This document shows, one piece after another, positions 4,546 to 57,829 of a stretch of 64,000 nucleotides of DNA (position 1 is its first letter; the number at the start of each line of letters is the position of its first letter). The translations under genes were made by a program, and so were the position numbers. The notes beneath the pieces are model-generated. The model saw only the letters and a program-made list of their open reading frames with translations, was not told where the DNA came from and ran no database searches. Where the stretch lies: the sequence record NC_028881.1; one strand, 5' to 3'. Origin of the DNA: Escherichia phage vb_EcoM-VR5.

Positions 4546-4571
4546 AAAATCTCCAAAAGGCCCTAGTGGCC

Positions 4572-5255
4572 TTAGTTTAAACGAATAAAAGATGAGTTAC
4601 GTGTTTCACGAATAAGAATGGAACCGTCACGATTGATATAGTAAATCAAACTAAACAATGTTTGGTGTGCGCTTGCATGAGTAAAAGAAGTAGGGCGTTC
4701 TTTCCAGTCCGGGGTCTCTTTAATCCACTGGTAAATCCACCAAGGAAGAGTACAATAACCTGGGGCTTTGCCCAGCATAAGCAGATTAGGACTAAAATTT
4801 TCAGGTAATTTAAATTTAGGGTTTTCAGATTCAACAATCTTAGATACCGCTTCTTCGAACTTCTCTTCAACAAAAGGAGTTTCAACAACAGCTATTTCAA
4901 CTGTTTCTGGGATATCTTTGATTTCAATAACTTCAACAGGTTCGGCAGGGGCCGTCGGAGCGTCAAATAATAATTTAGCTTCAATTTTAGATTCTTCAAC
5001 ATTTGCCAGGTGAGCATTAGTGCCCTGAAGCTCATCGTCGGCATCGATTAAATCAGTAATAGATAAACCTTCAGTTTCAGGTATAGGTTCATCTGCTATA
5101 GCCTTAAGGGCTTCAGCGATGTCTATTACCAAGTTGTCAAAACTTTTAGTTTTCTTAAGTTTTAAACCGAACTGTTCGCCGTATTCGATTAACTTAGCTT
5201 TAGCTTCTTTTTTATCTTCGAGTGAACGAAGCTCTTCAATATATTGAGTATCCAT
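4572..5255 (-). CDS. inh: Inh-like protein (inhibitor of prohead protease), by position and size
   Basis: 227-aa acidic ORF between hoc and uvsW as in T4 (Inh 226 aa); late promoter upstream; no motif-level confirmation. Confidence 0.5.
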   Translation of the reverse strand: MDTQYIEELRSLEDKKEAKAKLIEYGEQFGLKLKKTKSFDNLVIDIAEALKAIADEPIPETEGLSITDLIDADDELQGTNAHLANVEESKIEAKLLFDAPTAPAEPVEVIEIKDIPETVEIAVVETPFVEEKFEEAVSKIVESENPKFKLPENFSPNLLMLGKAPGYCTLPWWIYQWIKETPDWKERPTSFTHASAHQTLFSLIYYINRDGSILIRETRNSSFIRLN

Positions 5256-5274
5256 AATTAGTCTCTTGTTGGTG

Positions 5275-5282
5275 TATAAATA
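5275..5282 (+). promoter_or_regulatory. late promoter TATAAATA upstream of uvsW
   Basis: Exact TATAAATA 29 nt upstream of uvsW ATG. Confidence 0.6.
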
Positions 5283-5288
5283 TAACTA

Positions 5289-5296
5289 TATTTATA
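5289..5296 (-). promoter_or_regulatory. late promoter (TATAAATA on minus strand) upstream of inh
   Basis: TATTTATA on plus strand 34 nt upstream of the inh start; divergent from the uvsW promoter. Confidence 0.5.
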
Positions 5297-5310
5297 ACTG
5301 AGAATTAGAC

Positions 5311-6807: not shown

Positions 6808-7031
6808 AGTCCTTTAAAGAAGTTATCTATGAAGCCTCTATCGAGAGCTTCATGTCTAAAATTAGTTCTTGCCAAACCATGGACGGTTTGGAGGAATTGG
6901 AGAAGTATTACAAAACCCGAAGTAAAGAAGCCGAACTTCGTGATTCGGATGATATCAGTGTCCGTGATGCCCTAGCAGGTAAACGATCTGAATTAGAATC
7001 TATGGATGATGACGAAGAAGAAGAGTTCTAA
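6804..7031 (+). CDS. UvsW.1-like small acidic protein
   Basis: 75-aa ORF overlapping the uvsW stop, ending in an acidic tail (DDDEEEEF); position as T4 uvsW.1. Confidence 0.6.
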   Translation: MKSFKEVIYEASIESFMSKISSCQTMDGLEELEKYYKTRSKEAELRDSDDISVRDALAGKRSELESMDDDEEEEF

Positions 7032-7041
7032 AACAAAAAAA

Positions 7042-7063
7042 GGCCCAACCTTTCGGAAGGGCC
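7042..7063. terminator. GC hairpin between convergent uvsW.1 and the uvsY-side genes
   Basis: ggcccaacc-tttcgg-aagggcc with A-run on plus strand (T-run on minus). Confidence 0.5.
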
Positions 7064-7094
7064 AATAACCATAAAAATGGCTATACACACTAGA

Positions 7095-7262
7095 CTAAAG
7101 CAATAATTGTGTTTCGTTCAGCTGTTCTTCAGTGTTTTCCGTAACAGGCATGCTTTGAACGTAATTATAACATGGACCTGGATGAACCGGACCTTTTTCT
7201 GTTTCAACAACCAATGCAGCATCGATTGGAGTTTTACAGACAACGCAAATCTTATCTGACAT
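7095..7262 (-). CDS. small Cys-containing protein (uvsY.-2 position)
   Basis: 55-aa ORF below the ORF-track cutoff, MSDKICVVCKTPIDAALVVETEKGPVHPGPCYNY...; CxxC...C suggests a zinc ribbon. Confidence 0.5.
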   Translation of the reverse strand: MSDKICVVCKTPIDAALVVETEKGPVHPGPCYNYVQSMPVTENTEEQLNETQLLL

Positions 7263-7402
7263 GATTGTCTCCTTAGTTTATCTTACATATCTATTTATTA
7301 CTCTTCATAATAGCAGCACGAGCTTTCATCTCATTAACAATTTCGGTTATTCGGTTTGCAGAGATAACCATCTCGTCGAGAATCTTACTAATATTTTTTC
7401 AT

Positions 7403-7636
7403 TTAACTTTCCTTAAAGTATCTCATACCCGTATCTATCCCCATATTGTGAGAATAGAACGCATCATCGATGTATCCTGCAAATTTACCTTTAACATAGA
7501 TAACATCTTCACCACAAGGGTGGTCAGCGCAGATACGAATATCTGCACGATTCAATTTCCATTCCTTCATCATATACTTAATTTCTTCTTCGAACTCTTC
7601 GTCTTGGTTAAACGCATCGTCGATAGAATATCGCAT
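7403..7636 (-). CDS. hypothetical protein (uvsY.-1 position)
   Basis: 77-aa ORF immediately downstream of uvsY, ATG overlapping the uvsY stop. Confidence 0.5.
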   Translation of the reverse strand: MRYSIDDAFNQDEEFEEEIKYMMKEWKLNRADIRICADHPCGEDVIYVKGKFAGYIDDAFYSHNMGIDTGMRYFKES

Positions 7637-8070
7637 TACTTGCCTGCCTCAAATTGTCTCATCTCATGCATTGTCTTAAGGTTAAAACCCCGTGCCTTAA
7701 TAGCATCTAATGCCGAACTACAAAAGTCTTGTAATAAAGCCCAATACTGGATTGATGTATCGATTTTAATTACGCTTGAATCCGCAGCCATTACGGTCTT
7801 TAATTCCGACTTCTCGTACTGGTCCATACAAACCTCATCACCAGGCTCTCCACGTCCCGTGTAGAAATCTAATCTCTTCTTAAGAGAGGTCTTTTTCTGG
7901 ATTTCTAATCGCATTATCTCTTTCTTACAATTCGTATATAGTCTTAGCCATTTGCTGTGCAGCAAAACGTTGTTCTGTACTTCATACTGTAAACGAGTCC
8001 CATCAATCTTTAAATCTTCATCTAATGCATCTTGGAACGATTCTAATTTATATTCAATCTCTTTACTCAT
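7636..8070 (-). CDS. uvsY: UvsY recombination mediator
   Basis: ORF trimmed to internal ATG (MSKEIEYKLE...), 144 aa; strong match to T4 UvsY (TRLQYE..NNV.L.SKWL, LLQDFCSSALDAIKARGF, FEAGK terminus). Confidence 0.9.
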   Translation of the reverse strand: MSKEIEYKLESFQDALDEDLKIDGTRLQYEVQNNVLLHSKWLRLYTNCKKEIMRLEIQKKTSLKKRLDFYTGRGEPGDEVCMDQYEKSELKTVMAADSSVIKIDTSIQYWALLQDFCSSALDAIKARGFNLKTMHEMRQFEAGK

Positions 8071-8101
8071 AGCATGTTTCCTGTTGAATGACCGTAGGAC
8101 C

Positions 8102-8127
8102 ATTATACACCATTTGTTTGTACAGCA
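8102..8127 (-). promoter_or_regulatory. MotA-box middle promoter-like element upstream of uvsY
   Basis: Minus strand TGCTGTA-(13 nt)-TATAAT about 30 nt upstream of the uvsY ATG. Confidence 0.45.
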
Positions 8128-8128
8128 A

Positions 8129-8518
8129 TTAACCACTCTGTGAGAGCTGGATTCTAATTTGCTCTAATGTGTCCGGGTCGTCAACAATACTAAACTGGAC
8201 TGTTACTATAATAGAGTTGTCATCATAAACAGGGGTTACACCTACAGCAAGAGCAGAAATTCTGGGTTCGAAGTTCCGCACGGCGGAAACTATATTACGC
8301 TTAATGGTATCTGTTATTAATGGGGTAATATTCTCAAACAACTGATTGCTAATATCACATCCAAATTCAGGCATAAAAGGGCGAGAACCTTTACGAGTAG
8401 TAATAATGCCTAACAAACTATTTTTTACTGCACGGGACCCTGTAGCTTTAGCGACGTCTCTATTCCAAGACGTCCTCATTTCGGGGTCCAAATCTGAATA
8501 CATTTTATTGATATTCAT
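8129..8518 (-). CDS. 25: baseplate wedge subunit gp25
   Basis: 129 aa; matches T4 gp25 (LLGIITTRKGSRPF.PEFGCD, VRN.EPRI..LAV.V.PVYDD). Confidence 0.9.
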   Translation of the reverse strand: MNINKMYSDLDPEMRTSWNRDVAKATGSRAVKNSLLGIITTRKGSRPFMPEFGCDISNQLFENITPLITDTIKRNIVSAVRNFEPRISALAVGVTPVYDDNSIIVTVQFSIVDDPDTLEQIRIQLSQSG

Positions 8519-9141
8519 TACATCACCTTAAAGAACTCTTTAAGTCCCTCAATAACGTGGACGGTGTGCTCACCACATTCACAAGAAATAGGTATAGCCA
8601 AAATAGGCTTAGGGGCGACTAGAGCGTCATAAACTTCTTTTATATCTTTTTCTGTTATCACAGAATAAAGGTCATCTAGTTCCGCATCACTTAAATCGGA
8701 AAGAAGAAGCTTTTCGCCTGCAGAAGTTAAAATATAATCGATACACCCTGCGACCATCATAGCTCTATTTTTGTCTTCAAAGAGTTTAGGATATCTGAAC
8801 ACAATTTTAAAGTTACCAAAGTCCTTAATAACATCAGGCTCTTTACCTAATGTAGCGCGAGTTAATGTCATAGGGACAACCTGTGAGCGACCACAACTAC
8901 AAACCCACTCACGTTCTATATTCACTTCAGCTAATGAATGGGCCCACAGGTTTATCACCAGGAGATCAGATTCTTGCTTGTTTAAATCACGAGCATCTGT
9001 GCAATTCAAAATGAGTTCATTGATAAAGGACTCTATTCTGTCTTCTAATTTAGCTTGGAGCAAGTCCTTATACTCTCTGAGGGTAAATGCTCTGCATTTT
9101 ATAGTCTTGTTTTTAATTTTTACATCAAAAGTATAATTCAT
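8518..9141 (-). CDS. 26: baseplate hub subunit gp26
   Basis: 207-aa ORF in the T4 gp26 position between 25 and the divergent 51; size matches. Confidence 0.7.
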   Translation of the reverse strand: MNYTFDVKIKNKTIKCRAFTLREYKDLLQAKLEDRIESFINELILNCTDARDLNKQESDLLVINLWAHSLAEVNIEREWVCSCGRSQVVPMTLTRATLGKEPDVIKDFGNFKIVFRYPKLFEDKNRAMMVAGCIDYILTSAGEKLLLSDLSDAELDDLYSVITEKDIKEVYDALVAPKPILAIPISCECGEHTVHVIEGLKEFFKVM

Positions 9142-9158
9142 TGTCTTCTCCTTTAAGC

Positions 9159-9170
9159 TTATTTATAAAT
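9159..9170. promoter_or_regulatory. overlapping divergent late promoters (TATTTATAAATA)
   Basis: Contains TATAAATA on plus strand (for gene 51) and its reverse complement (for gene 26) in the 26/51 divergent intergenic region. Confidence 0.55.
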
Positions 9171-9191
9171 ACATCAATAAGAGGATACCTT

Positions 9192-9944
9192 ATGGCTAAT
9201 ATAGTACGTTGCGAAATGCCTGATGGAGTCCACCGATTTAAACCTTTTACCGTAGCTGATTATCGTGATTTTATTTTGATTCGAAATGATATGAATAACA
9301 AATCACCTGAAGAGCAAAAACAAATTTTAGATGAGTTACTAGAAGAATATTTCGGTGAGTACCCTATGTCATGGCGACCATACATGTTTATTGAACTGTA
9401 TACGTCATCTCTCGGCAAGACCAAAATTCCTATCCGTTACACTTGCAGTAAGTGTGAAAAAGATAGACAAGTTTTATTTAATTTGAAGCAGACTAAGTTA
9501 GATAACCCTACAATTGAAGTGGCTGGCTTGAAACTGACCTTCAAATTCCCTGAAATAGAATATCATGATAAATCTGAATTGATTTTGAATACCCTCCAAA
9601 CCGTAGAAGATGAAAACGGGGTTTATAATTGGGTAGACCTTTCTGAAGAGGACCAGTTAGCTGTAATAGATGCTATAGACTTATCTACTTTAGAGGATAT
9701 AGTCAAACAAACCAGCCCTATTCATTTCGAACTCAAGTATGGATGCTGTAATCGTAGAACAATTACGTATACCGATATTTTAGAAGTGTTTAAGCTTATA
9801 GTCAATCCGGATGAGATATTTTTATTTTACCAAATAAACCATTTACTGGTAAAGAACAATTATTCGTTAGAAAGCATTATGCAGATGATTCCAATCGAAC
9901 GCGGTATTGCTTTGTCTTTGGTTGAAAAGGACCTTAAGAAATGA
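9192..9944 (+). CDS. 51: baseplate hub assembly catalyst gp51
   Basis: ORF trimmed to ATG at 9192 ([12 protein letters not shown]...) preceded by AGGAT; 250 aa; position and size as T4 gp51. Confidence 0.7.
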
Positions 9945-11110
9945 GTTCAAAAACTATGCAGCGTGAAGGCTTTCCTAATATTAGTATACGCCTTTACGAA
10001 GATTATGACGCCTGGTTAGAGCATCGTTTTGTTGAACTAGGCGCGACATTTACTACCCTAACAATGCGAGACGGGCTTTACGGTAGTAATGAAGGATTGC
10101 TCCAGTTTTATGATGCAAAAAACCTTCATACCAAAATGGATGGTGAACAGATTATCCAAGTTTCCGTTAAGAACGCCAACTCAGAACGTACCCAATCAAG
10201 AATTTATGGAACCAAGCATTTTGCCGTAGGAGTGGATTCTAAGGGCGATAATATCATAACAATACAACTCGCCCCGATCCACTTTTTAGAAAATCTTAAA
10301 TTCGGACGTATGTTTTTCCCTAGTGTTCAAGAAACATTAACTGAAATGATTGGGGTTATTTACCAGGACCGACCGCTTCTTGCCCCACCACTGAACGGGA
10401 TAAACGTTTATGTTCCTAATGTCCCGTGGTGTGATTCTATGGATAGATATATGGAGTTTGTACGAGAAGTCGGTATGGCCGTTGAATCTGATAAATTTGT
10501 ATTTGTTTGGGAAGATATAGATGGTATTTCTATTATGGACTACGAATTTATGGTTAATCAAGAGCCGATCAATTTTGTAGTAGGTGAGCCTCGTTTAATA
10601 GGACAGTATGTCCAAGATATGGACACTCCTATTGCATTTGATTTTGAGTGGCTAACTAAAGCTAACCAACATAGCCGAAAACCATACGAAAACGCCACAG
10701 TATACGCCCATTCGTTCTTAGATAAAAACGCTACACGAATTACTTTTGGAGACGGGCAAAACAGTATATTAGTTTCTCGTTCCGGTGGATATTCTGATTA
10801 TACATATCGAAACGGATTTGAAGAAGCCGATAGATTAGTTACTATGGCCCAGTATGATGGATATGCTCATTGCAAGGTATACGGGAACTTTGAATTAACC
10901 CCAGGTGATAAGATTAATTTCTATGACCCTAAAAACCAATTCCAGTACGATTTTTATGTAGACGAAGTTATTCATGAAGTGAGTAACAATACATCAATTA
11001 CAAACCTTTATATGTTTACCAATGGTAAGCCTATTAAGATTGAAGAACCACCGAAGGTTAAAAATGAACTTAAAACTGATACTCCCGATCAAGAAAATAA
11101 CGCTGGGTGA
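9941..11110 (+). CDS. 27: baseplate hub subunit gp27
   Basis: 389-aa ORF, overlaps the gp51 stop; position and size as T4 gp27 (391 aa). Confidence 0.8.
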
Positions 11111-11585
11111 TAAAGAGATTTCTATTCCTAAATTAGGTCTTAAACACCAGAAATTGGTTAAAGATGAAAAGGACCCTTATAAAGCTCTTCATATATTAAT
11201 GGATTCCATTTATAAGGGTTTAACTGCAGCAGAAACTGATTTTGCTGCACTCCATCTTTTAGAATTCAACGGACGGCTAAAAGAAAAAGTAACCAAAGAC
11301 GGGTTTACATATAATCTAAATGACCTTTATATCTGTCAACGTCTTGAATTCCAATTCCAAGGTAAAACGTTTAAATTTAAATCACACAATCCATTCCAAA
11401 CATTTGGTCCTGTTGATAGTGTACTACAATCTCTTTATCTTGGTGATGATGTACCAGATTTTCTGGATATGCCTGCCTTTGTTGCGACATGGGCCGACGA
11501 TATAACTTCTACTGTAGCTATCCCTGGTCCTAATGGTCCTATTAAAGGATTGCTTAAAATCATGGATATCTTAAATGAAGAATGA
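11064..11585 (+). CDS. 28: baseplate hub distal subunit gp28
   Basis: ORF trimmed to ATG at 11064 ([11 protein letters not shown]...), 173 aa, overlapping the gp27 3' end as in T4. Confidence 0.7.
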
Positions 11586-44669: not shown

Positions 44670-44677
44670 TATAAATA
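44670..44677 (+). promoter_or_regulatory. late promoter TATAAATA upstream of gene 34
   Basis: Exact TATAAATA 32 nt upstream of the gp34 ATG. Confidence 0.6.
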
Positions 44678-44709: not shown

Positions 44710-47700
44710 ATGGCTGATATTTTAAAACCTGCATTCCGTGCTACATCCGGACTCGATGCTGCGGGCGAGAAAGTTATCAATGTTGCCAAAGCCGATTACA
44801 ATGTACTAGATGATGGCGTCAACGTTGAATTCTTTATAGATGAGAACACCATCCAGGCGTACGACGAGACGCGCGGATATAAGAAAGGGTTTGCAGTAAT
44901 CCATGACCAACGTATTTGGGTTGCTCAACGTGATATTGATGCCCCTGCTGGAACTTTTGTACCTGGTTATTGGACTGCCACTCGTACCGACCCTAAGTGG
45001 ATTACTGTGGCATCTCCTACGCGCCAGTTGGCTTCCGGTGAATATATTGCTGTTGATTCAGCTGCAAGCTTTACTACATTTACGTTACCTCCGAATCCTA
45101 CAGATGGTGATACCGTCGTAATAAAAGATATTGGTGGACGTGTAGGTTATAATGAAATAAAGGTCCAATCTAGTTCTGCTCCGGGTGGTGGTAACCAGAA
45201 AATTGTTCGATTTGGCAATCAGTTCGCTGAAACCCTAATTACGAAACCTTTTTCTTATAACATGATTATCTTTGCCAACCGTTTATGGCATTTCTGGGAA
45301 GCAGGTAACGAAGAACGCGGTGTTCGTGTAGAACCTAACACGGCCCAGTTCCAGGCCCAAGCAGGTGATAATGTTCTCCGTCGTTATACTTCAGGTGCGG
45401 TAATTAAGTTTACTCTTCCTAAGTATGCGAACCAAGGTGATATGATTAAAACCGTTGATATCGATGGCCTTGGAAGTAAGTTCCATTTAATCGTTGAAAC
45501 ATTCGATGCTTCGTCTGCTTTAGGTAAACAAGGTCAGCATAGCATGGAATTCCGTACCTCTGGTGATGGATTCTTCGTTTATAACTCTACAGAAAAATTA
45601 TGGTATGTTTGGGATGGTGATCGTCAAACTCGTCTGCGTGTTATTCGTGATGACGTAGAACTATTGGCTAACGAAAGTATTATTGTTTTTGGTCCTAATA
45701 ACACGACTCCTCAGACAATTAATATTACATTACCTACTGGTGTAGCCCAAGGTGATACGGTTAAAATTGCTCTGAACTATCTTCGTAAAGCGCAGACGGT
45801 AAATATTAAAGCTGCTGTAGGAGATAAGATTGCTTCTTCTGTTCAATTGCTCCAGTTCCCTAAACGTTCAGAATATCCACCTGATACTGAATGGGTGTTA
45901 AATGATGTACTAACCTTCAATGGTAATTTGAGCTATACCCCGGTTATTGAACTGAGTTATATCGAAGACATCACTACAGGTGGAAAATATTGGGTTGTTG
46001 CTCAGAACGTTCCTACTGTAGAGCGTGTAGATTCTAAGGACGATTTAACTCGTGCTCGTCTTGGTGTTATTGCCCTTGCGTCTCAGACCCAGGCAAACGT
46101 AGACCATGAAAATAACCCTGAAAAAGAATTGGCTATTACTCCACAGACTTTGGCCAACCGTGTAGCGACTGAATCACGTCGTGGTATTGCTCGTATTGCT
46201 ACAACGACTCAGGTGAACCAAGACACAACTTTCGCTTTCCAGGATGATTTGATTATTTCTCCTAAGAAATTAAACGAACGTACTGCAACCGAAACCCGTC
46301 GTGGTGTAGCTGAAATTGCTACGCAACAGGAAACTGATTCAGGTGTTGACGATACCACCATTATCACTCCTAAGAAGCTACAAGAGCGCCAGGGCTCTGA
46401 AAGTCTTTCAGGTATTGTAAAATATACTTCTACGGTAGGCACTACTCCTGCGACTGCTAGGGACACTGTAGGTACTAACGTTTATAATAAGAACGTAAAT
46501 AACCTTGTTATTTCTCCTAAAGCTTTAGACCAATATAAAGCTACTCAAGCTCAACAAGGTACGGTATATCTTTCTAATCAATCTGAAGTTAATACAGGAC
46601 AATCCGCGAGTGGATTCTCTAACAGCGCTGTTTCTCCGGAAACATTACATGCTCGTGTGGCTCTTGATACTCGTACTGGGTTAATTGAAATTGCTACGCA
46701 AGCAGAGACTGATGCCGGAACAGATTATACTCGTGCGGTAACGCCTAAGACGTTAAATGATAGGAAAGCTACGGAAGGACTAACTGGTATTGCTAGAATT
46801 GCAACACAGGTAGAATTTGATGCAGGTACGTTAGATAATGTTATTTCAACTCCGTTGAAAGTTAAAACTCGTTTTAATGATACTGCTAGAACTTCTGTCT
46901 CAGCAGCCAGTGGTTTGGTTGAATCAGGAACCTTATGGAACCATTATACACTAGATATCCGTGAAGCAAATGAGACTCAACGTGGTACTGCTCGCCTGGC
47001 AACCCAGACCGAAGTCAATGTTGGCACTGATGACAAAACCATCATCACTCCTTTGAAATTGCATTCTAAAAAATCTACCGAAAGTTCTGAAGGTATTATT
47101 CGTGTTGCAACGAATGCTGAAACCACCGCAGGAACTTCTAAAGTTCTAGCTATAAGTCCTTCTGGTTTAAAATATGTAGTACAGACCGAAACCACTTGGG
47201 AATCCACCGCCCTTCGTCGTGGATTTGTTAAATTGACTGAAGGCGCTTTGACTTACTCAGGAAATAAAGTTACTGGTTCTGGTGTTAAATTTAACCCAGG
47301 TACAGGCCTTTATGAGAATGATGATGACATTCTGGGTGCAGCGAACTACCCTAAAACGGGTTATGCTGTTTCATCTTACGAGATGAATAAAACTTTACAG
47401 AACTTTTTACCTATAAATGCTACGGCAGTGAACTCCGAGAAATTGGATGGCCTGGATTCACTTCAGTTCATTCGTAGGGACGTCGATCAAACGGTTAATG
47501 GTTCTTTAACCCTAACCAAACAATTGAATCTAGCGGCCCCTCTGGTGTCTTCTAGTACCGCTACATTTACAGATGTTACGGCTACGAATTCCACCTTCGG
47601 TACAGTGTACGTTGTTAATGGAACCAACAAGTGGAAAATCACTGCTCCTTCCACCGGAACGACAATGACTATTGGCGATACGACTAACGTATTGACATTA

Positions 47701-48678
47701 AACACCGCCTCGGGTAATGTTGCTGTATTGAACAACCTTAGTGCCGGAAACGATGTTCAAGCCAAAAATAATTACGTTCTAAACGGTCGTACTATTGCTA
47801 CCACGACGGGTGAAGTTTCTGGTGCTACATTATCTTTAGGCGATAATTCGCAGAATTTGGTGCTCAAAACTCTTGATGCTGGTAATATCATAGCAAATGG
47901 TGGCGGTGCATTTAAAGTCCTGACCGAGAAAAACGCTGTTGAGATTGTTGATAGAAACTTTGTTAATCAGGCCGGTGATACAATGTCTGGTGTGCTCCGT
48001 GTGAATGCTCCGGTCCGTGTATTCGGTACTAAGCCTACATTAGCATCACAGGTTCCTACTGCAGAAACTGTCGGCTTCTGGTCTGTTGATATCAATGATG
48101 AACTGACTTATAGTAAGTTCCCTGGTTATTGGACTATGAAAACCAAACGCCAAGTTAATATTGACACGACTCAAACTAAACCTACCGGCGTTTCTGATGA
48201 AGTGTGGAATGCTTCCGGTTGGTTAACGGAAACTGGTGCCTTTAGTTCTCCGGCCATCAGATATCGTAATGAAGACGGTAGTTTTGGCGATGAAGTTCTT
48301 GGTACGACTGGACAGAAATTACGTGGTACTTGGTTTGATTATTCTGTTCGTGATAAGGAAGTTAAATATCCAGGTACATTAACCCAGTTTGGTAATACTC
48401 TGGATTCATGTTATCAGGATTGGGTGTGTTATCCTACAGGACTGAATGGTGGTACTATCCGTTATACCCGCACCTGGCAGAAAAATAAAAGCGCATGGAC
48501 TACGTTCTCAATGGTCTATACGGCAGATAACCCTCCTTCTGCAGAAGACGTTGGCGCACTACCGGCAGATAACGCTACGATGGGTAATATTACAATCCTT
48601 GATTGGTTACGTATTGGTAACGTTCGTGTTATTCCCGACCCAGTCACTAAATCCGTTAAGTTTGAGTGGATTGAATAA
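44710..48678 (+). CDS. 34: long tail fibre proximal subunit gp34
   Basis: 1322 aa; long identical runs to T4 gp34 (ASSVQLLQFPKRSEYPP, YWVV.QNVPTVERVDS, TRARLGVIALA, TETRRGVAEIATQQET, C-terminal SDNATMGN.TI.D.LRIGNVR..PDPV.K.VKFEW). Confidence 0.95.
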   Translation: MADILKPAFRATSGLDAAGEKVINVAKADYNVLDDGVNVEFFIDENTIQAYDETRGYKKGFAVIHDQRIWVAQRDIDAPAGTFVPGYWTATRTDPKWITVASPTRQLASGEYIAVDSAASFTTFTLPPNPTDGDTVVIKDIGGRVGYNEIKVQSSSAPGGGNQKIVRFGNQFAETLITKPFSYNMIIFANRLWHFWEAGNEERGVRVEPNTAQFQAQAGDNVLRRYTSGAVIKFTLPKYANQGDMIKTVDIDGLGSKFHLIVETFDASSALGKQGQHSMEFRTSGDGFFVYNSTEKLWYVWDGDRQTRLRVIRDDVELLANESIIVFGPNNTTPQTINITLPTGVAQGDTVKIALNYLRKAQTVNIKAAVGDKIASSVQLLQFPKRSEYPPDTEWVLNDVLTFNGNLSYTPVIELSYIEDITTGGKYWVVAQNVPTVERVDSKDDLTRARLGVIALASQTQANVDHENNPEKELAITPQTLANRVATESRRGIARIATTTQVNQDTTFAFQDDLIISPKKLNERTATETRRGVAEIATQQETDSGVDDTTIITPKKLQERQGSESLSGIVKYTSTVGTTPATARDTVGTNVYNKNVNNLVISPKALDQYKATQAQQGTVYLSNQSEVNTGQSASGFSNSAVSPETLHARVALDTRTGLIEIATQAETDAGTDYTRAVTPKTLNDRKATEGLTGIARIATQVEFDAGTLDNVISTPLKVKTRFNDTARTSVSAASGLVESGTLWNHYTLDIREANETQRGTARLATQTEVNVGTDDKTIITPLKLHSKKSTESSEGIIRVATNAETTAGTSKVLAISPSGLKYVVQTETTWESTALRRGFVKLTEGALTYSGNKVTGSGVKFNPGTGLYENDDDILGAANYPKTGYAVSSYEMNKTLQNFLPINATAVNSEKLDGLDSLQFIRRDVDQTVNGSLTLTKQLNLAAPLVSSSTATFTDVTATNSTFGTVYVVNGTNKWKITAPSTGTTMTIGDTTNVLTLNTASGNVAVLNNLSAGNDVQAKNNYVLNGRTIATTTGEVSGATLSLGDNSQNLVLKTLDAGNIIANGGGAFKVLTEKNAVEIVDRNFVNQAGDTMSGVLRVNAPVRVFGTKPTLASQVPTAETVGFWSVDINDELTYSKFPGYWTMKTKRQVNIDTTQTKPTGVSDEVWNASGWLTETGAFSSPAIRYRNEDGSFGDEVLGTTGQKLRGTWFDYSVRDKEVKYPGTLTQFGNTLDSCYQDWVCYPTGLNGGTIRYTRTWQKNKSAWTTFSMVYTADNPPSAEDVGALPADNATMGNITILDWLRIGNVRVIPDPVTKSVKFEWIE

Positions 48679-48686
48679 GAGGTATT

Positions 48687-49811
48687 ATGGAAAGATTTAT
48701 GGCAGAATTTGGACAAGGATATGTCCAGGTTCCTACATTATCTGAAAACAATGCTGTAAGGTATAAACTTAGTATAGCTGGTAGTTGTACTAAGTCTACC
48801 AAAAAAGCATATGTTAAATTTCAAGATGGGGACTTTGGTCCCCAGAATTTTCAAAATGGATTAAATCTTATAGAAATAGATGTTAGTGCTGAACCTAAAA
48901 TAGTAGCTAACAAAACATATAGTTTTACAAAAGATTTTGATGTTATATCTGAAGCTTTTATAACGTATATAACTTCAATACCGGCAAACAGAATAGTTTG
49001 TTTAGTATCTTCAGGCAGATTAAATGCTTCACAGAAGCTTATTGACTGGTTCCACGCCGCAGGAAGTACTGCATTTCCATCTAAATGGTTAATAGACCGA
49101 TTTGAACCGTCTTATTCCGCCTTTTATGTTTCTGGTAGAAATACAATAGTAATGGAACACGTCCTTTATAATGACGGAGTGTTTGTTGAAGATGTTTCTA
49201 CCCCATTAGAAGTTGTTTTTGACGATATCAGTGATGTTGGTGGTACCGGATATCCTATAAGAATAGTAGAAGATGAAAGTACTTATCTAAGTAATGGAGG
49301 GGAGGAAATAAAACGGTTCCCTACGGAGTCTCCTACTACCCCTTGTGCTGATTATAATATGAAGCCTGGAGAGTTCTTTTATCTTAAATTCCAAATGATG
49401 CGCGACCAGGAATTAAAAGATTTAGCAGGGACTTCTCAAATGTCTGTTAGATTTTTTGATTCTAATAGTGCTTTGACGGGTACTGTAAATATGGAAATCC
49501 CGACTAATTTCCCTGCCGGGTCTTGGATGACTTTTGAGCGAGTAATTGAAGTTCCTGCTAATACAGAAACATTTACATTATACGCAAGAAAAACGGTGGC
49601 AAATGGAGTTGGTGGTGTGCGTAATGTGATGTTTGGGGAAGTATCTGAGCCAGAATCACAGCCTAAGTCAGCCGAATTTGGTGTAAATGGTATTCGTATG
49701 AATTTTGGTACTGAAACTGAGAATATGGGTACTACTATAGCCCAGTTATATGATAAAACCGGTAAGAAACCTGGACAGGTCTGGGTTGCTGAATTTAGAG
49801 AAAAATATTAA
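48687..49811 (+). CDS. 35: long tail fibre hinge connector gp35
   Basis: 374 aa; N-terminus MERFMAEFGQGYVQVP..SE.N.VRYK.SIAGSC and PAEFGVNGIR match T4 gp35. Confidence 0.9.
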   Translation: MERFMAEFGQGYVQVPTLSENNAVRYKLSIAGSCTKSTKKAYVKFQDGDFGPQNFQNGLNLIEIDVSAEPKIVANKTYSFTKDFDVISEAFITYITSIPANRIVCLVSSGRLNASQKLIDWFHAAGSTAFPSKWLIDRFEPSYSAFYVSGRNTIVMEHVLYNDGVFVEDVSTPLEVVFDDISDVGGTGYPIRIVEDESTYLSNGGEEIKRFPTESPTTPCADYNMKPGEFFYLKFQMMRDQELKDLAGTSQMSVRFFDSNSALTGTVNMEIPTNFPAGSWMTFERVIEVPANTETFTLYARKTVANGVGGVRNVMFGEVSEPESQPKSAEFGVNGIRMNFGTETENMGTTIAQLYDKTGKKPGQVWVAEFREKY

Positions 49812-49832
49812 GGAACCTTCGGGTTCCTTTTT
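49812..49832 (+). terminator. intrinsic terminator after gene 35
   Basis: ggaacc-ttcg-ggttcc hairpin followed by TTTTT. Confidence 0.7.
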
Positions 49833-49886
49833 CGTTTTCTACAGCCATAAATATATAAAAGGCTATAACTCCCAAAGGAAACTCAA

Positions 49887-50534
49887 ATGGCAGATTTAAA
49901 ATTAGGTTCTACAGCAGGAGGTTCAGTATTATGGCACCAAGGTAATTTTCCCTTGACGCCTGTATCAAATGACCTTCTTTACAAAACATATAAAGTTTAC
50001 ACCGAATATAATAAACCTCAAGCTACTGATAACGACTTTGTTTCAAAAGCTAATGGCGGTAATTATCAGAACAACGTGTATTTTGAAAAAGGTTTAACCT
50101 TTAATGATACTAACGGATATGGTATTAAATTAGGAGCAAGAGCCGGCGGAGCCCCGTTCACTGCTTCTTTCCGTATTAAAGGTGCTTTTGGATATGAAAC
50201 GGAAAACGGTACTCCGTTTATAATATTTGACCCAAGTACAGCAGTAGGTGCTAAACGCCTTACAGTAATGGGTGATTCATTATTCCGTCAGGTATACGAT
50301 GAATCAGGTCGCGTATTCAGCCCTGGCAACACCCCTACTAAAGCCCAAGTTGGATTGTCATTAGTAGATAATGCAAAACAGGTCCAAATAAATAATACTA
50401 ATATGCAAACAATGACTGGGGTACTTTCTGCTCCTAACTTCATTTCATTAAATCCGGCCTCTGACGCAGGACATGTTCCGCGTTTTGACCAGATTGTTAT
50501 TAAAGATTCTATCCAAGATTTTGGTTATTATTAA
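49887..50534 (+). CDS. 36: long tail fibre distal connector gp36
   Basis: 215 aa; MADLK.GST.GGSV.WHQGNFPL, NDFVSKANGG, C-terminal VKDS.QD.GYY match T4 gp36. Confidence 0.9.
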   Translation: MADLKLGSTAGGSVLWHQGNFPLTPVSNDLLYKTYKVYTEYNKPQATDNDFVSKANGGNYQNNVYFEKGLTFNDTNGYGIKLGARAGGAPFTASFRIKGAFGYETENGTPFIIFDPSTAVGAKRLTVMGDSLFRQVYDESGRVFSPGNTPTKAQVGLSLVDNAKQVQINNTNMQTMTGVLSAPNFISLNPASDAGHVPRFDQIVIKDSIQDFGYY

Positions 50535-50542
50535 GAGGCATT

Positions 50543-53500
50543 ATGGCTACTTTAAAACAGATACAATTTAAAAGAAGTAAAGTAGCTGGTGTACGTCCTA
50601 CGCCAGCACAGTTGGCTGAAGGTGAGCTGGCTATTAACTTAAAGGACCGTTTACTTTTTACTAAAGACGACTCTGGCGCTATCATCGACCTTGGCTTTGC
50701 TAAGGGCGGTAATATTGATGGTAATGTTATTCACAAAGGTAATTATAACCAAACCGGTAATTATACTTTAAATGGTACCTTTACTCAGACAGGTAATTAT
50801 ACGACAACCGGAAGTGTAACGGCCAACGGTGATGTTACAGCGAAATCTCGTCTAATGACAGATAATGGTGAAGTTCTTGTACGGGGTGCAGGAACCGCCC
50901 ACGTTCGATTCCAGGATTTGGCTGATGCGCGTGAAAGAGGCATAATTTATTCACAATCACGCCCAGGAAATACCAAGCAAATCTTGAACGTTCGTGTCCA
51001 GGATTATACTAATTCAACATCTAATATTTTTGCATTCAATGGTGACGGTTTATTTTATGCTCCATCTATTTCCGGTGGAACATCGATAAAATCTCCGGTA
51101 ATTTATACTAATACCGTTGATACCGGTAATAAATCAGCTCTTGATTATGATATATCTTCATTGGCAAATAATAATTCTAACACAGATAAAAATAATTTGC
51201 GCGTTGTACGTACTGATGCAACCGCCGCAATGCTCCATGAAATTTGTGAAAATAACGGTATCAGTTGGTATTCTGGTTCAACCCCTACTGATTATATATT
51301 ATCTTTTGCTTATTCGGGTGGTTTTCAAGCAGGCCATTCGATTGCAGTAGGTATGGAATCAGGGCCTATGACATATTCAGCCTTAGGTAAAGGTTCTATT
51401 GCTTTAGGTGATAATGATACCGGCTTAAAATGGCATCAAGATGGATATTTTCATACAGTAAACAACGGCACTAGAACTTTCATCTACGGTCCAGAAGAAA
51501 CCGCTAGCCTTAGAAAAATGGTTATAGGTTATTCTGTAAATGGTACTGATTTAACTACGCCGCCGACAGAAAACTATGCGCTTGGTACCGTTGTTACTTA
51601 TCATGATAATAACGCCTTCGGTGATGGACAAACTCTTTTAGGATATTATCAAGGTGGAGCATACCACCACTATTTTCGTGGTAAAGGCACTACAAACATT
51701 AACACCGCGGGTGGTTTGTTAGTTACTCCAGGCAATATCGACGTGATTGGCGGTTTAATTAATATCGACGGTCGCAGTAATGCTTCAACCTTACTGTTTA
51801 GTAGCTATACTTCTGGTCAAAGCTCTGTCGATAATATGAATATACGCGTTTGGGGCGATACTTTTGCTACTGTAGGTGGTACTCGCAAAAACGTAATGGA
51901 AATATCTGATGCCACTAGCTGGATGCACTATATTCAACGAACTACAGCAGGTAAAGTCGAATCTTATTTAAACGGCGCGATGAACATCGTCGAAGGATTG
52001 TCTGTCGGTCAAGATGCATCCTTAAAACGCAATCTGTACGTTTCCAATGAAATTAAAGTTCGCGGTTCTAGTGGACTTCGTATTTGGAACGATAAGTATG
52101 GTGTTATTTTCCGAAATTCAGAAGACCAGCTGCATATTATCCCAACCAATATTAATGCCGGCGAAAGTGGCGGATTAGGCCCATTACGCCCATTAAGTAT
52201 TACGTTAGACACGGGCCGGGTTAAAATCCCTAACTTAGAAGCAGACCAGGTTTATTTTAGGGGTAATGGTGCATTGGAATTCCCTAATAGTAACGGTGCA
52301 TCTTATGCCAACCAGAACACGACTAAAGCTCTGTTGTATCAAACGCTCGATGCTGCAACTCAAGCATTTTATCCTATTACTAAGCAGAAAAATATCGATT
52401 CGAATGTAACTGTTACTCAAGGTATGGACCGCGCTACGAGCGAATACCGAATTGTTGCTCAAGGTGATTTGCTTGGTGATGGTGATGCTACAGGATTAAA
52501 ATACTGGCGCTTTACTAAAGAAGGTAACTTCATAACTCAGAACCACTTATATGCCGGTACAGCCTTCTTGGACACTGAAGGTAACATTTCTGGTTCTATC
52601 TGGAACAAATACTCTGGCGCCACTAACCTTGATGCAGCGGTGAATACCCGTGTCGGTAAAAGCGGTGATACAATGACCGGAAAATTGACTATTGAGGCTC
52701 CGGGTGATGCATTAGTATTAAGAACAACCACAGGTAATAGCTCGCATATCCGTTCTGATGTAAATGGTACGGGCAACTGGTACGTTGGTAAAGGTGGCGA
52801 TGATAACGGGATAGCCCTTTATAGTTATGCTACCAATTCTGGTATGTACATCACTAATAGCGGCGCTTTCAACGTAGAACTTTCCGGCTCCGGCTTAGCA
52901 ATGCAGATGAATTATTATCGCATGTATGTTAATGGTCGCCAATGGGTTGCTTCACAGGGTCATGGTTATGGAAACCAATGGCAAACCGAAGCTCCTTATT
53001 TCGTTGACTTTGGCGAGGCTGTTCCTAAAGATAGTTATATGCCGATTATCAAAGGAAGAAGCACTCTAATTACCGATGGATATTCTACTAAAGCAGACTT
53101 CGGTATTATTCGAAGCGCTGGAGCATCTACATGGGGTTCTGCTGTTATTCGTGTGGGTTCTGCTGAAAGCGGTGATGCAAGTCATCCTAATGCTATATAC
53201 GTTTTTGGCGCCGACGGCACCTTAACCGCTCCCAATGCTGTGAATGCCGCATCTAGAATGGGTGTCGGTACATCATGTTCATTACCAAATGCTTCTATTG
53301 CTATTGGCGATAACGATACAGGTCTTTCCACTAGAGGTGATGGTAGTCTAGGCGCGTATGCTAATGCTCAGAGTGTATTTTTCTGGGAAGCGGGTGGTAT
53401 TACGACCGAGCAAAACAAATTCTTAAACGTTAACGCAGGGATGTATGTTCGTGATAACATTGATGTTAACGACGTTTATATCCGTTCTGATATTCGTTGT

Positions 53501-53803
53501 AAGTCAGAAATTAAGCTTATTGAGAACGCTCAAGAGAAATCTAAACTCTTAGGCGGCTATACTTATCTGCTTAAAAACTCTGTTACAGACGAAGTTAAAC
53601 CATCTGCAGGTTTAATTGCTCAGGAAGTTCAAGAAGTATTGCCTGAACTTGTTTCTGAAGATAAAGAGACCGGACTGCTTCGTTTGAACTATAACGGTAT
53701 TATTGGTTTAAATACAGCTACTATCAACGAGCATACAGATGAAATCAAGGAATTGAAATCTGAAATTGCTGAGTTGAAAGCATTAATTAAATCATTATTA
53801 TAA
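50543..53803 (+). CDS. 37: long tail fibre distal subunit gp37 with C-terminal intramolecular-chaperone (peptidase S74-like) domain
   Basis: 1086 aa; N-terminus [17 protein letters not shown]...[30 protein letters not shown] as T4 gp37; C-terminal 110 aa [12 protein letters not shown]...LLGGYTY.LK...[15 protein letters not shown] has the SD.R.K / GxIAQEV pattern of autoproteolytic chaperone domains. Confidence 0.85.
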
Positions 53804-53807
53804 GAAA

Positions 53808-53821
53808 GGGCCTTCGGGCCC
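53808..53821 (+). other. GC tetraloop hairpin between genes 37 and 38
   Basis: gggcc-ttcg-ggccc with no T-run after it; sits just 5' of the gp38 GGAGG RBS. Confidence 0.4.
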
Positions 53822-53832
53822 TGGAGGTTTAT

Positions 53833-54612
53833 ATGGCAGTAGTAGGAATTCCTGGTTGGATTGGAACTTCAGCGGTTGCTGAAACGGGCCAGCGTTGGAT
53901 GTCCGCAGCCTCTAGAGAATTACGTCTAGGGAACCCGTCTTGGATGTCCCAATTCGCGGGCCGCTCAAGAGAAATTATTCACACACTTGGAGCAGACCAT
54001 AACTTTAATGGTCAATGGTTCCGTGACCGTTGTTTTGAAGCCGGCGGTGCTCCTATAGTGTTTAATATCACAGGCAACTTGGTATCATATACTAAAGATG
54101 TTCCATTGTTCTTTATGTACGGTGATACCCCTAACGAATATGTTACTTTGAATATTCATGGCAACGTTCATATGTGGGGCCGAGGTGGTAATGGTAGCGT
54201 AAATGGAAGCCCAGGCACTAATGGTGGCGACGTAATCCAGAATGATATTGGTGGACGACTTCGCATTTGGAATTACGGTGTGATAGCCTCCGGCGGCGGC
54301 GGCGGTGGTGCAGTATCATTACAGAATAGTTGGGCTGCAAATGCTACAGCAGGTGGCGGCGGCGGACGACCATTTGGTCTCGGCGGTGGTGGCGTTAATT
54401 GGCCCGGCGGCAATGCTAGTTATGATGGTCCAGGTGGTGGTGGTAATACAAGTCAATTTGGCGGTGGTAATGGAGGTGATGCAGGTGGCGCTGGAGGCGA
54501 CGGATGGGGTAATCACTTATCTAGATCTGGGGGTGGTGCTCCTGGTAGAGCAGTATTCGGAAGTTCACCGACATGGGGTGCTACAGGCGCAATCTACGGC
54601 TCCTGGATATAA
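53833..54612 (+). CDS. 38: T2-type receptor-recognising tail fibre adhesin gp38 with glycine-rich motifs
   Basis: 259 aa; N-terminal [11 protein letters not shown]...RWMS...[22 protein letters not shown] block followed by several poly-Gly tracts (GGGGGG, GGGGG, GGGG) separated by short variable segments. Confidence 0.8.
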
Positions 54613-54628
54613 TACGAAAGTATTAAAT

Positions 54629-54636
54629 TATAAATA
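54629..54636 (+). promoter_or_regulatory. late promoter TATAAATA upstream of holin gene t
   Basis: Exact TATAAATA 18 nt upstream of the t ATG. Confidence 0.6.
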
Positions 54637-54654: not shown

Positions 54655-55308
54655 ATGGAACCAAAAGTAGGATTTTCATTAACAGACCTACTTTTTGGAC
54701 TTCTTGATAGAATTTTTAAAGATACTACTTCCGGGAAAGTAGTTTTTTCCCGGGTCCTAGTCGTAATATTATTGTTCTTTATGACATTGATTTGGTATAA
54801 AGGCGAGTATATTCTAAACTTTTATAAAGAGACTACTTATGCCTCTTATACTGAAATGATTAGACAAGACCAGGACAATAGATTTAAAATTGCGGCTATC
54901 GAGCAGCTCCGAATAGTGCATTCTTCTTCAGGCGCAGACTTCACAGCAGTATATTCTTTTAGACCTACCAACATGAATTATTTTGTGGATATGGTGGCTT
55001 ATGAGGGTAAATTACCGGAAACGGTAGACGCAAAAAATACGGGAGGGTTTCCGATTGACAAAACGTCAGTAGAGTATATGGCGGGAGTTAACGGGAACTA
55101 TTTTGAATCATCTACTGAATCAGTGTTTCTCCCTACAAAAGAGAAAACTTATTTCACTTATATGTTTTCGTGCCCGTTTTTTAATTTGGATAACATCTAT
55201 GCCGGTTCGATATCATTATACTGGTATGACATCAAACCGGATTTAGGATTTCCTAGACTTTCGTCTATGTGTGGTCAGGCCGGGAGGACATTAGGTCGAA
55301 CTCGTTAA
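54655..55308 (+). CDS. t: holin T
   Basis: 217 aa (T4 T 218 aa); matches T4 holin (LFG.LDR.FKD...GKV, SRV.VVILLF, SAVYSFRP.N.NYFVD..AYEGKLP, YM.SCP.FNLDNIYAG.I..YWY). Confidence 0.9.
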   Translation: MEPKVGFSLTDLLFGLLDRIFKDTTSGKVVFSRVLVVILLFFMTLIWYKGEYILNFYKETTYASYTEMIRQDQDNRFKIAAIEQLRIVHSSSGADFTAVYSFRPTNMNYFVDMVAYEGKLPETVDAKNTGGFPIDKTSVEYMAGVNGNYFESSTESVFLPTKEKTYFTYMFSCPFFNLDNIYAGSISLYWYDIKPDLGFPRLSSMCGQAGRTLGRTR

Positions 55309-55580
55309 AAATTGGAGGTATACATCATTAAGTAACGGTGTATATCTTCATACCCTTCATTAAATTGCTCAATAAGAGTATCACGTTCATCTTCAGTTAA
55401 AGACTTAAAGAGTTTATTAAAAGATAGACCATTAAGTTCCTTTCCATGTTCATTACGAATACCTAGCTCGTTCAAAAAGGCAATAAACTCATCACGACGT
55501 TGCATGATGTCTTCACAATCCGTTTTAATTAAAATAGAAACAATAGTAGCAATTTCAGAAACGATTTCAATTTTAGTCAT
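55305..55580 (-). CDS. asiA: anti-sigma70 protein AsiA
   Basis: 91 aa; matches T4 AsiA (A.IVSILIK...EDI...R..FIAFLNE.G, L.QNSF.K, LT.ED...LIE.FNEG.E...RYL.MYT). Confidence 0.85.
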   Translation of the reverse strand: MTKIEIVSEIATIVSILIKTDCEDIMQRRDEFIAFLNELGIRNEHGKELNGLSFNKLFKSLTEDERDTLIEQFNEGYEDIHRYLMMYTSNF

Positions 55581-57196: not shown

Positions 57197-57829
57197 TTAA
57201 ATTGCGTTAGTTACGGTTTTGATAACTTCAGATGATACGTTTTGGAAGTCAATATAAGTATTCTTACCACCAGTCTTAATCTTAACATCAAGGTTCAAGG
57301 ATGTAAACACTTGTTTTTCTTTATCAGTCATATTATAACCGAAGATGCGCATCATTCCATCACGGCGAACTTCAATTTGACGAATACCGTTGGTACGTTT
57401 TGCGAATCGAACTTCAAGATTACTACGGTTTTCAGCGATTTCACGAATCTCAATACGTTCTTCTAACAAAGCTTTGACTTCATCAGCCAGTGCCACCATT
57501 TCAGGAGTAACACCACGTGAACTGCGTGTTTTACGTTTTTCCAACATCTCTGGGGCATTTTCAGAAGCGAACAAATCAGCAGCTTTTTGAACAAGGTCCA
57601 TTGCTTCACCTGTAGCTACTAAACCATCACCTGATTTTTCGATGAATCCTTTCTTAATCAATACACCAATGTTAGAGTTAACTACCGCAGCACTAAATTG
57701 CTCACTCAGGGCTTCACGGACTTCGCCTGAAGTGATAAAGTTATGCTTGATGATATGTACTAAGATCGAAGCAGTTTTTTCATTCAGGGCGTCTTCAGAA
57801 GCTTTGATGATATAAGTAATTTTAGACAT
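57197..57829 (-). CDS. motA: middle-transcription activator MotA
   Basis: 210 aa; matches T4 MotA (MSK.TYIIKAS.D.LNEKTA.IL, AEVRE, VVNSNIGVLIKKG..EKSGDGL..TGEA, EKRTNGIR, MRIFGY.M). Confidence 0.9.
   Translation of the reverse strand: MSKITYIIKASEDALNEKTASILVHIIKHNFITSGEVREALSEQFSAAVVNSNIGVLIKKGFIEKSGDGLVATGEAMDLVQKAADLFASENAPEMLEKRKTRSSRGVTPEMVALADEVKALLEERIEIREIAENRSNLEVRFAKRTNGIRQIEVRRDGMMRIFGYNMTDKEKQVFTSLNLDVKIKTGGKNTYIDFQNVSSEVIKTVTNAI

Follow-up and report, generated by a model that had tools for sequence, protein, structure and literature searches.

Which of the two proteins at the distal end of the VR5 long tail fiber recognizes the host? The phage, vB_EcoM-VR5, is a T4-like coliphage of the genus Dhakavirus, and we addressed the question in a 64,000-nucleotide stretch of its genome (NC_028881.1; hereafter the window). 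Open reading frames combined with Pfam and PHROG profile matches gave the gene order 34-35-36-37-38-t, which is canonical, and the gp37 and gp38 reading frames lie exactly where the first-pass annotation had placed them (Table 1). That annotation had proposed a T2-type module. We are highly confident that this is a T2/S16-type receptor-recognition module, working through a gp37 that cleaves itself and a gp38 that caps it. Judged from the sequence, gp38 rather than gp37 is most likely the adhesin, and gp37 its precursor partner.

Table 1. Features of the VR5 tail fiber locus, with positions counted from the first letter of the window.
Feature	Position	Strand	Basis
TATAAATA, putative late promoter, T4-type consensus	44670-44677	+	Exact match, 33 nt upstream of gene 34
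Gene 34, long tail fiber proximal subunit, 1322 aa	44710-48678	+	ORF
Gene 35, proximal hinge connector, 374 aa	48687-49811	+	phrog_1154, E = 1.4e-156
Gene 36, distal hinge connector, 215 aa	49887-50534	+	phrog_1425, E = 2e-58
Gene 37, whole ORF, 1086 aa	50543-53803	+	ORF
gp37 predicted mature part, residues 1-981, 105.0 kDa	50543-53485	+	phrog_1699, E = 0; Pfam Gp34_trimer, gp37_trimer
DVYIR, residues 977-981, last β-strand of mature gp37, predicted gp38 docking surface	53471-53485	+	
gp37 C-terminal intramolecular chaperone/Peptidase_S74, residues 982-1086 plus stop, 11.6 kDa	53486-53803	+	Pfam PF13884
SDIRCK, residues 982-987, predicted catalytic Ser982/Lys987 dyad (spacing +5) and oxyanion Arg985	53486-53503	+	
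GLIAQEV motif of the S74 domain, residues 1023-1029	53609-53629	+	Motif position
GGGCCTTCGGGCCC hairpin with UUCG loop, 37-38 gap	53808-53821	+	Single-sequence z = -1.3
Gene 38, whole ORF, 259 aa	53833-54612	+	ORF
gp38 N-terminal attachment domain, residues 1-42, predicted Trp prongs W9, W22, W37	53833-53958	+	Pfam Gp38_N
gp38 adhesin body, residues 47-259 plus stop, β-helix and polyglycine (GRM/HVS) receptor-binding domain	53971-54612	+	Pfam GP38
Glycine-rich motifs alternating with hypervariable segments, residues 116-240, predicted receptor-contact end	54178-54552	+	
HVS3 loop region, gp38 residues 197-222, including Q208 and G199, G203, N205, A220	54421-54498	+	Alignments
TATAAATA, putative late promoter upstream of t	54629-54636	+	Exact match
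Gene t, holin, 217 aa, downstream flank	54655-55308	+	Pfam Phage_holin_T, E = 2.2e-65

The genes from 34 to 38 are likely to form one late transcription unit starting at the TATAAATA site before gene 34, and no further exact copy lies between that promoter and the one at 54629. Eight copies were found across the window where 7.2 would be expected, which is no enrichment over chance, so the late-promoter assignment is one of position. We retained just the two sites before gene 34 and before t as positional evidence. Genes 37 and 38 are separated by 29 nt, and a Shine-Dalgarno sequence (GGAGG, 53823-53827) directly follows the GGGCCTTCGGGCCC hairpin in this gap. A hairpin occupies the same place in all seven phages compared, with weak statistical support. 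RNAalifold returned only four consensus pairs for it, with no double compensatory change, since the aligned hairpins are not in register with one another.

The evidence on gp37 is concentrated at its C-terminus. An identity profile against relatives shows the shaft to be a mosaic, and residues 913-981 are homologous to the tip of S16 gp37. The first-pass annotation had pointed to SD.R.K and GxIAQEV patterns in a terminal domain of roughly 110 residues. Both are present, as SDIRCK and GLIAQEV, and the size was accurate, the domain being 105 residues long (982-1086). The S74 profile search that it proposed gave a significant match of residues 982-1037 to Peptidase_S74 (PF13884; E = 4e-12; score 46.7 bits, where the curated Pfam cut-off is 22 bits) that covers profile positions 1-57 of 58. 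The domain forms the extreme C-terminus of the 1086-residue protein, and what lies upstream matches fiber families and the trimeric S16 gp37 tip. Residues 1001-1050 are 100% identical to those of phages UGJNEcP3 and AlbertHofmann.

Conservation is strict around the predicted cleavage site. The S, D, R and K of SDIRCK are invariant across the seven phages, as are the G, A and Q of GLIAQEV, and the preceding VYIR is kept in 7/7, so that VYIRSD.R.K reads the same throughout, T2 included. A Ser-Lys dyad assisted by an Arg has been described as the mechanism of the endosialidase and MYRF chaperone domains (in the MYRF paper); searching the literature for the numbered endosialidase residues (Ser911/Lys916) gave no hit. 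For the fPS phages, the literature gives DVYIR itself as the strand on which gp38 docks. Crystal structure 6F45 contains an S16 gp37 fragment (chain A) to which residues 913-1085 align (E = 1e-33), and the S16 cleavage site, DLNVS^SDRRIKK, which was determined experimentally, falls opposite DVYIR^SDIRCK in VR5. VR5 gp37 is thus very probably cut, with R981^S982 as the predicted site, which would free a fragment of 105 residues and 11.6 kDa.

A literature search on the VR5 fiber or its receptor turned up nothing beyond citations of the 2010 paper on its isolation, and the accessible literature contains no direct proteomic data on VR5. This leaves some room for an S74 domain that is never cleaved or released and stays at the fiber tip, uncapped by gp38. 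We consider such an arrangement very improbable. The predicted catalytic residues (Ser, Lys, Arg) are strictly conserved, as is the docking strand before them; S16 gp37, a homolog, is cut at the corresponding site; and for T2/T6-type phages the literature reports proteolysis of gp37 followed by capping with gp38. Moreover, an intact gp38 with its attachment domain is encoded directly downstream of the chaperone-bearing gp37 and its DVYIR.

The partner protein has the parts that a capping adhesin would need. As the first-pass annotation had claimed, gp38 opens with a conserved attachment block, matched by Gp38_N (PF21721) over residues 1-42 (E = 6.4e-21, 74.5 bits, cut-off 25). The three Trp residues W9, W22 and W37 are the only ones in residues 1-45, are invariant in the alignments of relatives and align with Trp residues of the S16 adhesin; their docking role as prongs is described in the literature. 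The glycine-rich C-terminal part matches GP38 (PF05268; E = 1.8e-81, 273.6 bits, cut-off 25), and gp38 also matches phrog_2056 "host specificity" (E = 3.5e-109) and the adhesin family phrog_1121. The glycine-rich motifs noted in the first-pass annotation are also real: residues 116-240 are 39% Gly, and gp38 contains six runs of at least three Gly. S16 and PP01 have matching Gly runs in the alignment, and variation is concentrated between the motifs, an architecture of glycine-rich motifs (GRM) and hypervariable segments (HVS) that is described in the literature on gp38 adhesins.

A single-sequence AlphaFold2 model of gp38 reached a mean pLDDT of only 32 and a pTM of 0.18. The fold is nevertheless settled by sequence homology to two crystal structures, since the whole of gp38 can be aligned to the S16 adhesin (6F45_D, E = 2.4e-50), as in the comparison with T2/S16-type adhesins proposed by the first-pass annotation, and also to the PP01 receptor-binding domain (9V85, E = 1.9e-75). 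For S16, T2, PP01 and RB51/RB68, gp38 has been shown to cap the gp37 trimer in the virion as a monomer and to determine receptor specificity.

In T4 the C-terminus of gp37 binds the receptor, and gp38 is an assembly chaperone absent from the virion. Several deposited relatives of VR5 invite the same reading by labeling their gp38 homologs "distal long tail fiber assembly catalyst" or "chaperone", but these labels are inherited from T4 nomenclature. Domain content refutes a T4-type arrangement for VR5 at the sequence level, and we give it practically no credence. VR5 gp38 belongs to PF05268, PF21721 and phrog_2056, not to the Tfa-type phrog_105, and is homologous over its full length to crystallized adhesins. 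VR5 gp37 has no HxH motif and no Pfam match to the Collar domain, in keeping with the contrast to the His-box tip of T4 that the first-pass annotation had drawn. Phage ESCO10, of the same genus, served as a positive control and is the T4-type counterexample: its gp37, which lacks an S74 domain, carries eight HxH motifs together with a Collar domain, and its gp38 is a Tfa-type protein of 180 residues that matches phrog_105 "tail fiber assembly". With a significant S74 match in gp37 and an attachment domain in gp38, the T2-type reading of VR5 is supported.

The T4-type module of ESCO10 sits in the same slot as the VR5 module, between gene 36 and t. The 5′ part of gene 34 is 92.7% identical in the two phages up to about position 47254, where similarity ends; it resumes at 54624, and the TATAAATA site before t coincides with this right-hand boundary of the exchanged module. 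Over roughly the first 50 residues, the gp37 proteins of the two phages share 70% identity, and gene t is 97-100% identical. The pair represents a clean exchange of a whole module within a genus, about 7.4 kb of T2-type against T4-type sequence between backbones that are 93-100% identical. Whole fiber-module exchange as a phenomenon has been described for decades.

The domain architecture, the conservation of catalytic and docking residues and the homology to solved structures and typed relatives are direct observations. From the homology we infer cleavage, 3:1 capping and the presence of gp38 in the VR5 virion, along with the receptor. On the T2/S16 model, gp37 would be made as a 116.6-kDa precursor whose last 105 residues act as an S74 intramolecular chaperone (IMC), nucleating trimerization of the β-helical shaft. 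Once the trimer has folded, the Ser982-Lys987 dyad would cut the Arg981/Ser982 bond, with Arg985 stabilizing the oxyanion. Departure of the 11.6-kDa chaperone would expose a flat tip of three DVYIR strands. One gp38 monomer (26 kDa) could then dock, its N-terminal three-helix bundle placing W9, W22 and W37 in three equivalent hydrophobic pockets of the gp37 tip. At the far end of gp38, the glycine-rich motifs would build a polyglycine-II sandwich, and the hypervariable loops projecting from it would bind an outer-membrane porin, most probably OmpF; the LPS core probably matters too.

OmpF is likely to be the receptor: identity and the switch residue point to it, but HVS3 differs close by. VR5 gp38 is 87-95% identical to adhesins whose OmpF dependence is experimental (Bas47 95%, fPS-2 91%, FL33 90%, RB51 87%), and clustering at 90% places it with RB51 and FL31. 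In the literature, the receptor is OmpF for Bas47 (with complementation), FL33 and RB51, and OmpF plus LPS core for fPS-2. Q208 of VR5 corresponds to Q206 of RB51, the OmpF/OmpW switch position, and the Gln is kept. In the clade that VR5 gp38 shares with RB51, Q206L in HVS3 alone switches specificity from OmpF to OmpW, and among T2-like adhesins one or two HVS changes are enough to alter it.

VR5 gp38 differs from all of the typed OmpF binders (three to four) at 11 positions, mostly in hypervariable segments, and its HVS loops are identical to none of theirs. Within HVS3, the differing residues are G199, G203, N205 and A220. UGJNEcP3 shares all four and ABTNLsp5 the first three, and this HVS3 sub-allele of Dhakavirus phages is the reason for considering a T2-type module that targets another porin (OmpW or a different one) or particular OmpF alleles, for example those of Salmonella. 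N205 lies three residues from Q208, at which the equivalent substitution converts OmpF specificity to OmpW by itself; SV76 and T2 use different receptors with single HVS residue differences; and ABTNLsp5, with most of the sub-allele, was isolated on Salmonella. Set against this are the 87-95% identity shared overall with OmpF binders of three genera, the Gln at the switch position, as in every OmpF binder, and the fact that gp38 phylogeny generally predicts the receptor. We rate another porin or a restricted set of alleles as unlikely. Since the sub-allele differs from typed binders no more than three residues from the switch, it could itself specify a different porin or OmpF allele range, such as Salmonella OmpF, a suggestion we likewise regard as unlikely. 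OmpF remains the probable receptor. VR5 was described as a low-temperature phage, and one might speculate that the adhesin contributes to that plating behavior.

The arrangement of the VR5 fiber tip is already known and is not new. Identical proteins are deposited in GenBank for VR5, gp37 under the name "long tail fiber distal subunit" and gp38 under "tail fiber adhesin", the latter also as "receptor-recognizing protein gp38", and the T2-type arrangement is the predominant form among T4-type phages (Trojet 2011). The value of the analysis is practical rather than conceptual. Fiber-tip typing matters for host-range prediction and for phage engineering by gp38 swaps, and several GenBank relatives still mislabel a T2-type gp38 as an "assembly catalyst".

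One of the closest known counterparts is the gp37-gp38 tip of S16 (PDB 6F45; Dunne et al. 2018), in which, as predicted for VR5, the gp37 tip is followed by an auto-cleaved IMC. Its gp38 likewise combines an N-terminal bundle with three Trp residues, a β-helix and a polyglycine-II sandwich. The two differ in the docking strand (DLNVS in S16, DVYIR in VR5) and in the length of the IMC (113 versus 105 residues). Their HVS loops are unrelated, and S16 binds Salmonella OmpC, whereas OmpF is the likely receptor for VR5.

T2, the archetype of the class, has the same Pfam architecture as VR5 (S74 on gp37, GP38 and Gp38_N on gp38), the same gene order leading into t and an identical VYIRSDIR.K junction. 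Identity is nonetheless only 52% for gp38 and 36% for gp37, T2 gp37 is longer (1341 residues versus 1086), and the T2 receptors are FadL/OmpF. Bas47 (AlbertHofmann), RB51, FL31/33/34 and the Yersinia phages fPS-2/fPS-90 have an OmpF-dependent gp38 with Gln at the switch position, as VR5 does. They belong to Mosigvirus or Tequatrovirus rather than Dhakavirus, and their gp37 shafts are only 50-58% identical to that of VR5.

The Peptidase_S74 domains of the K1F endosialidase and of MYRF share with VR5 a C-terminal Ser-x4-Lys dyad and an Arg, and they fold a trimeric β-helix before excising themselves. There the new C-terminus is simply the end of the spike, whereas in VR5 it is predicted to become the docking platform for a separate adhesin.

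The first-pass annotation read genes 37 and 38 of VR5 as a T2-type receptor recognition module, and the domain content of the two products supports this reading: gp37, the distal subunit of the long tail fiber, carries a Peptidase_S74 domain, gp38 matches both GP38 and Gp38_N, and T2 has the same combination. Both S74-pattern motifs that had been pointed out in gp37 are present (SDIRCK, residues 982–987; GLIAQEV, residues 1023–1029). A profile search for the proposed domain was positive for Pfam Peptidase_S74 (E = 4e-12), with residues 982–1037 covering profile positions 1–57 of 58 and scoring 46.7 bits (curated cut-off, 22 bits). A search of the PDB aligned residues 913–1085 with the gp37 fragment of phage S16 (6F45_A, E = 1.1e-33).

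Salem et al. (PMC7917993) report that S16 gp37 cleaves itself at DLNVS^SDRRIKK, which frees a 113-residue intramolecular chaperone (IMC), and they aligned DVYIR^SDGRLKI of the fPS phages to this site; DVYIR is the docking strand for gp38 in those phages. The aligned junction in VR5 reads DVYIR981^S982DIRCK. When gp37 from the window was aligned with its counterparts in UGJNEcP3, AlbertHofmann (Bas47), fPS-2, FL33, ABTNLsp5 and T2, V-Y-I-R-S-D-x-R-x-K was invariant in all seven phages, and the shaft just upstream was highly variable. In the S74 family, the catalytic dyad pairs a Ser with a Lys at position +5, an Arg stabilizes the oxyanion, and these residues acquire the right geometry only after trimerization (PMC3742443). 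The predicted equivalents in VR5 are S982 and K987, with R985 at the oxyanion. Architecture and residue conservation are direct observations for both gp37 and gp38. Cleavage of VR5 gp37 is expected by homology, and would convert a 116.6-kDa precursor to a 105.0-kDa mature protein (residues 1–981) and an 11.6-kDa IMC (residues 982–1086).

The attachment block claimed for gp38 is a Gp38_N domain (PF21721, residues 1–42, E = 6.4e-21), and the adhesin body that follows belongs to family GP38 (PF05268, residues 47–259, E = 1.8e-81). In PDB searches, the S16 adhesin (6F45_D, E = 2.4e-50) aligned with the whole of gp38, and the receptor-binding domain of PP01 gp38 (9V85, E = 1.9e-75) with its residues 40–258. 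The N-terminus of gp38, which would dock on gp37, has exactly three Trp residues (W9, W22 and W37), all invariant among the comparators and aligned with Trp residues of S16. The expected glycine-rich motifs were also found: residues 116–240 are 39% Gly, and conserved Gly runs alternate with variable loops (hypervariable segments, HVSs), the layout of the polyglycine-II sandwich described for S16. By homology, gp38 would cap gp37 (one gp38 to three gp37) and bind the receptor.

Because its close relatives are OmpF-typed and it has Gln at a known switch position, OmpF is probably the receptor of VR5 gp38. AlbertHofmann gp38 (95% identity) belongs to a phage with complemented ompF dependence, that of fPS-2 (91%) is typed to OmpF and the LPS core, and those of FL33 (90%) and RB51 (87%) are typed to OmpF; clustering at 90% groups RB51 and FL31 gp38 with the window protein. 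A 2026 preprint found Q206L in HVS3 of RB51 gp38 to be necessary and sufficient for a switch from OmpF to OmpW, and the aligned residue in VR5 is Q208. Specificity is known to change with single HVS substitutions. Eleven positions in VR5 gp38 are unlike every typed OmpF binder (T87, N111, S122, S126, A169, G199, G203, N205, A220, T247 and A253); most fall within HVSs, and N205 precedes Q208, at the switch position, by three residues. UGJNEcP3 has all four HVS3 variants (G199, G203, N205 and A220), and ABTNLsp5, which was isolated on Salmonella, has the first three.

Genes 34 to t follow the canonical T-even late-gene order, with genes 37 and 38 exactly where the first-pass annotation had placed them. 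The minus-strand ORFs downstream of t are arranged as in the annotations of AlbertHofmann, fPS-2 and T2, and are ordinary T-even synteny. The borderline match in gp35 is presumably the "GG domain" common to phage gp35 and FAM3/ILEI proteins.

Coordinates of features at the fiber locus of VR5
Feature	Position	Strand	Product	Remarks
Gene 34	44710–48678
Gene 35	48687–49811			phrog_1154
gp35 residues 57–130	48855–49076			Pfam ILEI (PF15711), 26.9 bits, cut-off 27
Gene 36	49887–50534			phrog_1425
Gene 37	50543–53803	+	1086 aa	phrog_1699, E = 0
GDNDTGL, first copy	51407–51427			gp37 residues 289–295
GDNDTGL, second copy	53306–53326			gp37 residues 922–928
Hairpin	53808–53821			GGGCC-UUCG-GGCCC
Shine-Dalgarno	53823–53827			GGAGG
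Gene 38	53833–54612	+	259 aa	phrog_2056, "tail fiber protein; host specificity"
Gene t	54655–55308		holin	Pfam Phage_holin_T, E = 2e-65
ORF at asiA (anti-sigma factor) position	55305–55580	−	91 aa
ORF at motA position	57197–57829	−	210 aa

The stop codon of gene 37 and the start codon of gene 38 are 29 nt apart, and a hairpin occupies this gap, with the Shine-Dalgarno sequence directly 3' of it. Because a GC hairpin recurs in this gap in all seven phages compared with differing stems (fPS-2, GGGGCTTTGCCCC; FL33, GGGGGAAATGCCCCC; T2, AGAGGGCTTCGGCCCTCT), a conserved structural role is suggested, for example in stabilizing or processing the mRNA or in controlling translation of gene 38. The hairpin has weak statistical support (z = −1.3), and no double compensatory changes were found in the seven-phage alignment, which is misregistered.

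Within the phage collection, the Dhakavirus ESCO10 is the closest relative by backbone (95% identity over 24 kb). Identity to ESCO10 is 92.7% up to ~47254, inside gene 34, and 93–100% again from 54624, with the right breakpoint at the t late promoter; between them it is only 69%, or the sequences are unalignable. Since similarity is lost only between high-identity flanks, a block of ~7.4 kb has been exchanged (~47255–54623, against 4082–11398 of the ESCO10 locus), reaching beyond genes 37 and 38 to include the 3' third of gene 34 and genes 35 and 36. Within it, gp37 is itself mosaic. Its best full-length relative is ABTNLsp5 (83–84% identity); relative to UGJNEcP3 and AlbertHofmann, the shaft (~550–950) is only 22–60% identical and IMC residues 1001–1050 are 100% identical. 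The stretch 51200–51400 (residues ~220–285) is a local hypervariable patch, with no nucleotide similarity detectable in any of seven comparator phages and only 48–52% protein identity to ABTNLsp5. The heptapeptide GDNDTGL, a repeated structural motif of gp37, occurs twice in the context SIA(L/I)GDNDTGL and also in the S16 gp37 tip; homologous recombination between fiber segments could plausibly take place there.

The T2-type assignment is correct but already known, given that Trojet et al. described this arrangement as the predominant one in T4-type phages, and given the annotation of these exact proteins from the 170,473-bp genome of vB_EcoM-VR5 (species Dhakavirus vr5). Exact-sequence look-up returned "long tail fiber distal subunit" for gp37 (AIZ02037.1/YP_009205944.1) and "tail fiber adhesin" or "Receptor-recognizing protein gp38" for gp38 (AIZ02038.1/YP_009205945.1). 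Our literature search found no paper on VR5's own fiber tip or receptor. In many GenBank records of close relatives, the adhesin-type gp38 still bears the T4-derived label "distal long tail fiber assembly catalyst/chaperone".

The predicted contrast with the His-box tip of T4 held, as gp37 from the window has no HxH motif. The gp37 that ESCO10 encodes in the same slot (1182 aa) lacks S74 and has a Collar domain, together with eight HxH motifs within its last ~180 residues; ESCO10 gp38, of 180 aa, matches phrog_105 ("tail fiber assembly") and not the adhesin families. The Pfam architecture of gp37 and gp38 in VR5 is instead the same as that of the archetype, T2.
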